A stretch of DNA of 64,000 nucleotides. It comes from Bacteroidota bacterium. Its GTDB lineage: Bacteria > Bacteroidota > JABWAT01. Below the pieces are notes generated by a model. It ran no database searches and had not been told where the DNA came from. It saw nothing but the letters and a program-made list of their open reading frames with translations. Below are positions 38,771 to 39,246 of the stretch, piece by piece (within the stretch, counting starts at the first letter, position 1; each line of letters opens with the position of its first letter). The position numbers and the translations under genes were made by a program. The DNA lies in the NCBI GenBank assembly GCA_013360915.1, contig JABWAT010000009.1, forward strand, positions 3,337 through 67,336, in the 5' to 3' direction.

Positions 38771-38845
38771 TACCGAAGGAGGGATTCGGACCCCCGACAC
38801 ATGGATGATAATTCCATTGTACGGCCGCTGCCGGACTACTTCGGA
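38771..38845 (-). pseudogene. tRNA-like element copy 1: tRNA(CAU) paralog with hairpin-replaced D-arm and further decay (anticodon loop ATTATCA, T-loop TCCGAAT)
   Basis: Acceptor, anticodon and T arms align to the canonical copy at 39062-39135. The D-arm is replaced by GTCCGGCAGCGGCCGTAC. Confidence 0.5.
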
Positions 38846-38865
38846 GTAAGAGCGAGAGTGGCCAA

Positions 38866-38896
38866 ATAAAAAAGGCGGAATCTGGTCCGCCTTTTT
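38866..38896 (-). terminator. Terminator GGCGGA-atctgg-TCCGCC with flanking A and T runs, between tRNA-like copies 2 and 1
   Basis: Perfect 6-bp GC stem followed by a U-run on the minus strand. Confidence 0.6.
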
Positions 38897-38914
38897 GAGA
38901 GTCCGTTTTTTTTG

Positions 38915-38989
38915 TACCGAAGGAGGGATTCGAACCCCCGACACATGGATTATGATTCCATTGTCCGGCCGCTGCCGGACTACTTCGGA
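38915..38989 (-). ncRNA. tRNA-like element copy 2: identical to tRNA(CAU) except G1 to T and a D-arm replaced by a perfect 7-bp hairpin GTCCGGC-agcg-GCCGGAC
   Basis: A base-by-base comparison with the 39062-39135 tRNA finds the acceptor 3' strand, U8, A9, the anticodon arm (loop ATCATAA, anticodon CAU), the variable loop and the T-arm all identical. Confidence 0.5.
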
Positions 38990-39012
38990 CTAATAACGGG
39001 CAGGCAGTTGTC

Positions 39013-39045
39013 AAAAAAAAAGGCGGAATCTGATCCGCCTTTTTT
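39013..39045 (-). terminator. Terminator GGCGGA-atctga-TCCGCC between tRNA(CAU) and tRNA-like copy 2
   Basis: Hairpin flanked by A9 and T6 runs. Confidence 0.6.
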
Positions 39046-39061
39046 GTGAGTCTGCTTTCTG

Positions 39062-39135
39062 TACCGAAGGAGGGATTCGAACCCCCGACACATGGATTAT
39101 GATTCCATTGCTCTAACCGACTGAGCTACTTCGGC
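39062..39135 (-). tRNA. tRNA with CAU anticodon, canonical cloverleaf (elongator Met, or tRNA-Ile2 substrate of TilS)
   Basis: GCCGAAG acceptor, D-arm GCTCAGTCGGTTAGAGC, anticodon loop ATCATAA, T-loop TTCGAAT. Confidence 0.85.
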
Positions 39136-39172
39136 AAAAGAAAAATGGAATCGGTCAGATTCCATTTTTTTT
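39136..39172 (-). terminator. Terminator TGGAATC-ggtca-GATTCCA after tRNA-fMet
   Basis: Perfect 7-bp stem with a T8 run. Confidence 0.6.
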
Positions 39173-39173
39173 G

Positions 39174-39246
39174 TAGCGGGGACAGGATTTGAACCTGTGA
39201 CCTTCGGGTTATGAGCCCGACGAGCTACCAGCTGCTCTACCCCGCG
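39174..39246 (-). tRNA. Initiator tRNA-fMet (CAU)
   Basis: Near-identical to E. coli tRNA-fMet (CGCGGGG...TCGGGCTCATAACCCGA). It has an unpaired C1/U72 and three G-C pairs in the anticodon stem. Confidence 0.85.

Follow-up and report, generated by a model that had tools for sequence, protein, structure and literature searches.

Some pseudo-tRNAs are functional; the tRNA-Other of Bacillus cereus and the non-proteinogenic tRNA-Gly of staphylococci are examples, each conserved in its group and having a normal D-arm. In selenocysteine transfer RNA (tRNASec), the D-arm has 6 bp and a 4-nt loop in bacteria and eukaryotes, and 7 bp in archaea (PMC7609411). Template switching during replication is reported to create or perfect RNA stems (PMC8794818). 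Here, we describe a tandem array of four tRNA-sized units (A, B, C and D) next to tilS in a 64,000-nucleotide stretch of DNA from a Bacteroidota bacterium (GenBank assembly GCA_013360915.1, contig JABWAT010000009.1, positions 3,337 to 67,336; the whole stretch is referred to as the window). In units C and D, the D-arm is replaced by a hairpin whose stem is identical to that of a tRNA terminator in a related genome. Judging from the sequence, we hold with moderate confidence that C and D are pseudo-tRNA tandem duplicates of B in which a copied terminator hairpin took the place of the D-arm and that are now neutral or decaying.

The four units lie head to tail on the minus strand, exactly where the first-pass annotation of the window had placed them, with starts 144-147 nt apart and spacers of 69-72 nt, and both C and D are full length (Table 1). 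ARAGORN called A and B only and rejected C and D. The Rfam tRNA covariance model (threshold 29 bits) was applied to each unit, as the annotation had proposed; A, B and C were scored in a search of the whole window and D in a local search. The annotation had also assigned each unit its own terminator, which is right for A, B and C, each followed by a complete hairpin and T-run, and wrong for D, which keeps the 3' half only. A consensus terminator scanner returned 0 sites at 38500-39500 despite these three textbook hairpin-plus-T-run terminators; its negatives are unreliable here, and terminators were therefore taken from an explicit hairpin listing.

Table 1. Features of the tilS-linked tRNA array and of the second hairpin-bearing paralog, in window coordinates.
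Feature	Position	Strand	Evidence
Unit A, initiator tRNA-fMet (CAU)	39173..39246	minus	ARAGORN; Rfam tRNA 67.0 bits
Terminator hairpin and T-run 3' of A	39141..39169	minus	perfect 12-bp inverted repeat including A/T flanks
Unit B, canonical elongator-type tRNA(CAU), probably tRNA-Met	39062..39135	minus	ARAGORN; Rfam 69.6 bits; cloverleaf fold
Terminator 3' of B, GGCGGA-TCAGAT-TCCGCC and T-run	39016..39045	minus	hairpin listing
Unit C, tRNA-like paralog of B; U1, D-arm substituted	38915..38989	minus	Rfam 47.9 bits
D-arm module of C, perfect hairpin GTCCGGC-AGCG-GCCGGAC	38963..38980	minus	pattern scan and hairpin listing
Terminator 3' of C, GGCGGA-CCAGAT-TCCGCC and T-run	38869..38896	minus	hairpin listing
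Unit D, decayed C-type copy	38771..38845	minus	Rfam 33.3 bits, local search only
Remnant of D terminator: 5' arm deleted, 3' arm and degraded T-run kept	38739..38759	minus	alignment
TTGTCCGGCC in tilS leader	38731..38740	minus	unique 10-mer in window; exact complement of GGCCGGACAA in unit C
tilS, true open reading frame of 436 aa	37382..38692	minus	identical to database protein P0001; Pfam PP-loop and TilS_C
Likely array promoter: TTGACA 39293-39288, Bacteroidetes-type -7 box CAtcTTTG 39270-39263	39263..39293	minus	regex scan
pSer, tRNA-derived paralog with D-arm module TCCGG-CAGGA-CCGGA	3397..3454	minus	58 nt

Unit B has G1 opposite U72 and does not encode CCA. In the alignment of B with C, none of the 48 positions from A26 to A73 differs and one of the nine positions of the 5' strand does (G1 to U), such that C equals B at 56 of the 57 positions outside the D-arm, whereas the 17-nt D-arm of B (GCTCAGTCGGTTAGAGC) is replaced in C by the 18-nt hairpin. 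The precise D-arm swap with a G1-to-U change that had been noted from the letters is thus confirmed, and an exchange of one arm with 56 of 57 other positions kept is indeed unlike ordinary erosion by point mutation. C is predicted to fold into a cloverleaf with a 7-bp/4-nt D-hairpin (-32.1 kcal/mol, z-score -3.47), in which the acceptor stem has 6 bp plus a U1.U72 mismatch and the anticodon and T arms are intact. Rather than the canonical stem of 3-5 bp and loop of 7-11 nt with A14, G18 and G19, the D-arm of both C and D has a 7-bp stem and the 4-nt loop AGCG; lacking the D-loop residues for the tRNA elbow, the RNAs of C and D are probably not used in translation.

Unit D continues the decay series from B through C that the annotation had recognized. 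Four substitutions separate it from C. One turns G to U in the 3' arm of the hairpin, giving a stem mismatch in a module that is perfect in C; the others (C34 to U, A37 to C, U54 to C) leave the anticodon loop AUUAUCA, and C37 and C54 where canonical elongator tRNAs, beside a 7-bp acceptor stem and a 5-bp anticodon stem with U33, have a purine at 37 and T54-Psi55-C56. In addition, half of its terminator is deleted, and its predicted fold is weaker than that of C (z-score -1.68). After the C34-to-U change, the anticodon loop of D (window 38809-38815) presents the anticodon UAU, which would read the Ile codon AUA; given pyrimidine 37 and C54, this is probably a coincidence of decay.

Comparison with related loci, numbered here with the prefix L, indicated where the hairpin came from. 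Its stem, GTCCGGC/GCCGGAC, is identical at 14 of 14 stem bases to the stem of the terminator that follows tRNA-Ser(GCU) in L021 (aaaaaGTCCGGC-cttt-GCCGGACttttt). The terminators of the same tRNA in L025 and L026 are GTCCGG-cttaga-CCGGAC and TCCGG-caagt-CCGGA, and those after the B-type tRNA are TCCGG-ttcatg-CCGGA in L002 and TCCGGT-gttg-ACCGGA in L004. Across about 194 kb (the window plus the relative loci), TCCGG-N3-7-CCGGA was found only in tRNA terminators, in C, in the paralog pSer described below and in one coding region. This tRNA-linked occurrence, together with the stem identity, indicates that the module is homologous to the tRNA terminator hairpins of the clade. It is not itself an intrinsic terminator, the hairpin being followed by AAUGGAAUC and not by a U-run; A- and T-runs border the same-stem or same-core hairpins of L021, L025, L026, L002 and L004. 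On these comparisons, the module is neither a dispersed repeat nor derived from B's own D-arm. A simple template switch within the hairpin of B's D-arm was considered and rejected, as neither new arm matches the ancestral arms.

A near-identical hairpin in different contexts and genomes, and at two loci of the window, could also be a small mobile palindrome, like a repetitive extragenic palindromic (REP) element or a miniature inverted-repeat transposable element (MITE), that inserts at or near tRNA genes, either downstream as a terminator or in the D-arm of redundant copies. The annotation had offered an element of this kind, and we consider it very unlikely. With up to three mismatches allowed, the hairpin pattern occurs in the 64 kb only in C and D (0.07 expected), and for the hairpin in its D-arm context an exact-pattern scan of viral contigs and a strict-pattern scan of metagenome contigs each gave 0 matches; a REP-like element was ruled out on copy number. 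Moreover, 16-17 nt were replaced rather than inserted with a target duplication, no RAYT or transposase was noticed nearby (open reading frame lists for 1-6500 and 35500-42500 were read and seven frames were scanned with Pfam), and the hairpin matches the tRNA terminators of relatives instead.

The reading that we prefer can be put as a sequence of events. A unit comprising the B gene and its terminator would have been duplicated in tandem, in this lineage specifically, to give C and D. In their common ancestor, the D-arm (positions 10-25) would have been overwritten once by a terminator-type (G)TCCGG(C)...(G)CCGGA(C) hairpin, G1 changing to U as well, and we infer that this happened during or after the duplication through a microhomology-mediated two-jump template switch between nearby hairpin-forming sequences. 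D would subsequently have decayed, and the 48-nt 3' segment of C would have been held equal to B by gene conversion from the essential gene B. The longest tract shared with B is 48 nt in C versus 18 nt in D, suggesting that D escaped such conversion; the identity of C with B is probably maintained by gene conversion over the 48-nt tract, which is a neutral explanation. In the alignment, the trailers pair B with D, whereas the D-arm pairs C with D, and this conflict shows recombination among the units.

Both tRNA loci of the window carry a paralog of this kind, making recurrent copying of terminator hairpins into the D-arm the point of note. The second paralog, pSer, sits between tRNA-Ser(UGA) (3560-3477) and tRNA-Ser(GCU) (3378-3288) and aligns as a partial tandem duplicate of the latter, including its 14-nt leader. 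Its D-arm segment GCCGAGAGGC is exchanged for a module that equals the L026 tRNA-Ser(GCU) terminator at 14 of 16 positions, its anticodon arm has become the perfect 7-bp hairpin GGCAACG-AAAC-CGTTGCC with the anticodon deleted, and the variable and T arms are gone. Its G1-to-A change is accompanied by a matching C72-to-U change, giving a compensated A1-U72 closing pair, and the predicted fold is a closed three-way junction (-28.7 kcal/mol, z-score -3.6). The 9-mer GTCCGGCAG is common to pSer, C and D and has one further occurrence in 128 kb (both strands). pSer is 100% identical in at least eight independent Logan assemblies. No counterpart of it is present in L021, L022, L025 or L026, whose two Ser tRNAs are separated by about 17-35 nt.

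In L024 (1249-1296), we observed a comparable duplicate of the 5' portion of tRNA-Ser(GCU), with exactly the replacement boundaries of pSer and another perfect hairpin (GGAGGGATG / TCAGTC-GGCT-GACTGA / TTCAGGCAAC). In AtpG, L024 is 77-80% identical to L021, L022 and L025 and 61% identical to the window, which places it with the former; the AtpG relatives of the window are annotated as metagenome-assembled genomes (MAGs) of Bacteroidetes or Ignavibacteria. It is possible that pSer and the L024 element originated independently, and it is also possible that they are orthologous, were lost at least twice and had two stem pairs changed on both sides.

Around tilS, the order of genes is conserved and the extra units are not part of it. 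The block of fMet tRNA, CAU tRNA, tilS, hpt and ftsH is kept in L002, L004 and L005 and, truncated, in L003, L006 and L007, and the B-type tRNA is nearly unchanged upstream of tilS in all six. In L002, L004, L005 and L007, the fMet and CAU tRNAs alone precede tilS, without C or D, and the interval between the CAU tRNA and tilS in relatives holds a terminator and a promoter only, save for repeats in L007. A permissive Rfam search (E<=0.5) found no extra tRNA-like sequence in seven relative loci. With four related lineages carrying only fMet tRNA, CAU tRNA and tilS, C and D appear, within the reach of public data, to be confined to this lineage. The nearest TilS proteins in a database protein search are 34-37% identical, and a TilS protein search of GTDB-representative genomes returned one distant locus (L001, 27% identity). 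A permissive scan of metagenome contigs for any non-canonical D-arm of 8-32 nt gave 0 matches; its pattern fixed the acceptor strand and the anticodon stem, so divergent homologs could escape it. When C and B were compared by BLAST with phages, plasmids and E. coli genomes, the similarity was of the generic tRNA kind only. L007, which has the closest TilS relative, contains at about 230-700 two copies of a repeat of about 190 nt (tcatcctgtcaatcctgatcatccctgt...) that is unrelated to tRNA, within a gap of 580 nt between the CAU tRNA and tilS.

Several observations weigh against the interpretation of C and D as decaying duplicates. All three present trailers carry a GGCGGA-type and not a TCCGG-type terminator, implying that the donor hairpin is no longer intact at the locus. 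The trailers of C and B are about 80% identical over the alignable 50 nt, from which about 10 changes would be expected in the body of C, and none is seen in 56 positions; the unchanged body could equally reflect purifying selection. The hairpin of C is perfect and its own terminator is intact. Finally, the collections searched contained no genus-level relative (nearest TilS 37%), which means that the lack of conservation was tested at long range only.

Some of these observations would suit a retained non-canonical RNA, the other possibility raised by the annotation. C, and formerly D too, would then be a trans-acting tRNA-like RNA that joins the body of tRNA-Met to a 7-bp/4-nt D-arm like that of tRNASec. 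RNase P, RNase Z and the CCA-adding enzyme would process it, and it might engage a tRNA-binding enzyme or toxin, either as a decoy or as its substrate, or be a tRNA kept from normal translation. C matches B outside the D-arm despite diverged trailers, it combines a perfect hairpin with a strong cloverleaf fold, a tRNA-level covariance score and a terminator of its own, functional tRNAs with a D-stem of 6-7 bp and a 4-nt D-loop are known in the form of tRNASec (PMC7609411), and the same architecture recurs in pSer and L024. However, we found nothing that shows retention: the unit is missing from all relatives examined, including the four lineages named above, its sister copy D is degenerating, and it has no recognisable promoter of its own. 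C also has a U1.U72 mismatch and a 7/5 acceptor/T domain instead of the 13-bp acceptor branch of tRNASec, and pSer lacks an anticodon and a T arm, so that the hairpin is the only feature shared. We therefore regard a retained trans-acting RNA as unlikely. Similarly improbable, in our estimate, is a wider scheme in which redundant tRNA copies would be remodelled systematically by hairpin copying into stable, retained RNAs that carry a D-arm of the tRNASec type (7 bp/4 nt) on an otherwise intact tRNA-Met body and act, for example, as self-contained processing punctuation, as insulators of tRNA operons or as decoys that occupy tRNA-binding enzymes or toxins; pSer-type elements would in that case represent an earlier form of the class, whose structure has been conserved through compensatory stem changes since the lineage of L024 split off.

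The position of the array raises a role in cis. Downstream of the array lie tilS, hpt and ftsH, and upstream of it is a gene for a di-haem cytochrome c. The 520-aa tilS reading frame that runs into unit C is an artefact, as suspected from the repeats that it translates: the database TilS has 436 aa and begins at the ATG at 38692. A regex scan of the window found a site ahead of A that is likely, on its sequence, to act as the promoter of the array (Table 1), and found no recognisable promoter box before B, C, D or tilS. With only A having a recognisable promoter, transcription of C and D would have to read through two or three terminators; if transcribed in this way from the A promoter, they would be excised by RNase P and RNase Z like tRNA-shaped spacers before tilS. 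The motif TTTGcagtcc is also present upstream of the orthologous tRNA in L002. The combination of -7 box and cagtcc (TAttTTTGcagtcc / CAtcTTTGcagtcc) was noted before the first tRNA of operons at window 3573-3580 and 39263-39270 (minus), and upstream of tRNA-Ser(UGA) in L021, L022, L024, L025 and L026.

C and D might accordingly be conceived as parts of the tilS 5' leader, either as tRNA-shaped processing punctuation that frees the tilS messenger RNA or as a tRNA mimic for feedback by a tRNA-binding protein. A distance of 78 nt separates unit D, now without its terminator hairpin, from the downstream tilS ATG, tilS has no recognisable promoter of its own, unlike in L002, where a TAttTTTG box lies ahead of the gene, and the 3' arm of the hairpin finds its complement in the leader 10-mer TTGTCCGGCC. 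The alternative pairing of hairpin and leader is, however, unsupported thermodynamically (z-score -1.09, minimum free energy frequency 0.014), the intact C terminator separates tilS from the units upstream, related lineages lack the extra units, and the parent B resembles tRNA-Met, which is not a TilS substrate. A cis role is thus decidedly unlikely in our view. The same 10-mer may, weakly, be a remnant of an ancestral TCCGG-type terminator, an idea further weakened by an alternative alignment to the C trailer. A third, deleted unit may also once have stood in the leader, but only GTCCGGCC and a weak resemblance of CCGTTCGGTC speak for it, and the segment aligns equally to the C trailer.

That B resembles tRNA-Met bears on the suggestion, made from the adjacency to tilS, that the CAU tRNA is tRNA-Ile2, the lysidine substrate. 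Initiator tRNAs are marked by a 1:72 mismatch, A11:U24 and three G:C pairs at 29-31:39-41 (PMC1635315); unit A, with a C1xU72 mismatch, A11:U24 and G29-G31:C39-C41 read from the sequence, is therefore an initiator tRNA-fMet. Unit B has C3-G70, G4-C69, A5-U68 and G29-C41, and is without C4-G69 and C5-G68. In E. coli, C29-G41 and C4-G69 are elements for isoleucyl-tRNA synthetase. tRNA-Ile(CAU) is marked by G3 or A3 and often has C4-G69 and C5-G68, and Met tRNAs usually have C3-G70 (PMC1635315). The 3-70, 4-69, 5-68 and 29-41 pairs of B thus weaken the tRNA-Ile2 proposal and are indicative of an elongator tRNA-Met, which we consider quite likely on this basis. It is possible that B is tRNA-Ile2 all the same, given that the order fMet tRNA, CAU tRNA, tilS is conserved in relatives. 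In the BLAST search, B matched a Sinorhizobium tRNA at 90% identity, in records that carry no RNA annotation and do not help to decide between Met and Ile2.

We also asked whether the array could be a product of metagenome assembly, with strain variants strung in tandem. The units do share a 48-nt exact repeat, and L010, a Logan k=31 contig of run SRR25608335, is chimeric at that repeat: its positions 1-354 are a 40%-GC segment ending in the 5' half of another tRNA(CAU) (GGCGAGGTAGCTCAGCAGGTTAGAGC), joined across the repeat to the trailer of unit C. The remainder of L010 equals window 38963-36179 at 100% identity, spanning C from its 3' part through its trailer, the whole of D with the hairpin, and tilS, and this independent copy confirms a hairpin-type unit; the 5' part of C is supported by the MAG assembly alone. 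pSer, moreover, is identical across its independent assemblies, and the inter-unit spacers are distinct and ordered, which is unexpected for collapsed variants. An assembly artefact is therefore extremely improbable.

At the pSer locus, the sequence beyond tRNA-Ser(GCU) (window 215-2817, plus strand) is a restriction-modification islet with a DUF4145 protein, a BglII-like endonuclease, an MT-A70 methyltransferase and an unassigned open reading frame (Pfam). Relatives have a 299-aa gene and transfer-messenger RNA after tRNA-Ser(GCU), indicating that synteny breaks at the islet. Downstream of tRNA-Ser(GCU), the direct repeat GGTGTCAGAATGGGTGTCAAA with a terminator was found at window 3231-3251 and 3203-3224 (minus), and the same layout occurs in L028 (1-70), a contig of an unrelated sample. 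In L022 (4176-4600), a small GIY-YIG gene after tRNA-Ser(GCU) is flanked by a repeated tRNA 3' end and terminator, as in an att-type duplication.

If C and D are neutral, as we favour, they would offer a clear case, found in nature, of one hairpin replacing another in a single step within a structured RNA gene, at two loci of one genome; if they are functional, they would be bacterial tRNA-like RNAs uniting a tRNASec-style D-arm with a standard 7/5 body, a combination that is not known to have been described. Such units also call for care in annotation, because covariance models score them far over the tRNA threshold (47.9 bits for C) and six-frame callers of open reading frames run tilS across them.

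Among known systems, tandem tRNA duplicates and pseudogenes resemble the array in their head-to-tail copies of tRNA plus terminator, one of which, here D, gathers disabling mutations and deletions; what differs is that the whole D-arm has been swapped in one step for a perfect foreign hairpin, and that this has also occurred at a second tRNA locus. Duplicates left at the attachment (att) sites of integrative elements likewise place extra tRNA fragments beside tRNA genes, as in the GIY-YIG islet of L022 with its repeated tRNA-Ser 3' end, but C and D are full length, only their short spacers and no island or integrase lie between the units, and pSer is a 5' rather than a 3' fragment. The 7-bp/4-nt D-arm of C falls within the stem of 6-7 bp and loop of 4 nt of tRNASec and allo-tRNAs. 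The 13-bp acceptor branch of tRNASec, however, is divided 8/5 in bacteria and 9/4 in archaea and eukaryotes, and allo-tRNAs have 8/4 and 9/3 layouts, whereas C is 7/5, has a 5-nt variable loop without a long variable arm, carries the anticodon CAU in place of UCA or another special anticodon, and is absent from relatives; with this domain, short variable loop and anticodon, C is not a member of the tRNASec family.

In the template-switch hairpins reported in PMC8794818, a cluster of changes gives a perfect stem in one step, as seen here, and the anticodon arm of pSer, turned into a perfect 7-bp hairpin with an ancestral 5' arm, fits that description; in C, by contrast, neither arm is ancestral, and the template seems to have been another hairpin, a terminator, instead of the opposite arm. 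With functional pseudo-tRNAs, C and D would share the form of tRNA-shaped RNAs diverted from normal translation, but those are conserved in their groups with a normal D-arm, and C and D are absent from the relatives examined. The closest description of C and D is therefore a tRNA pseudogene or tRNA-like paralog produced by an unusual hairpin-for-hairpin replacement.

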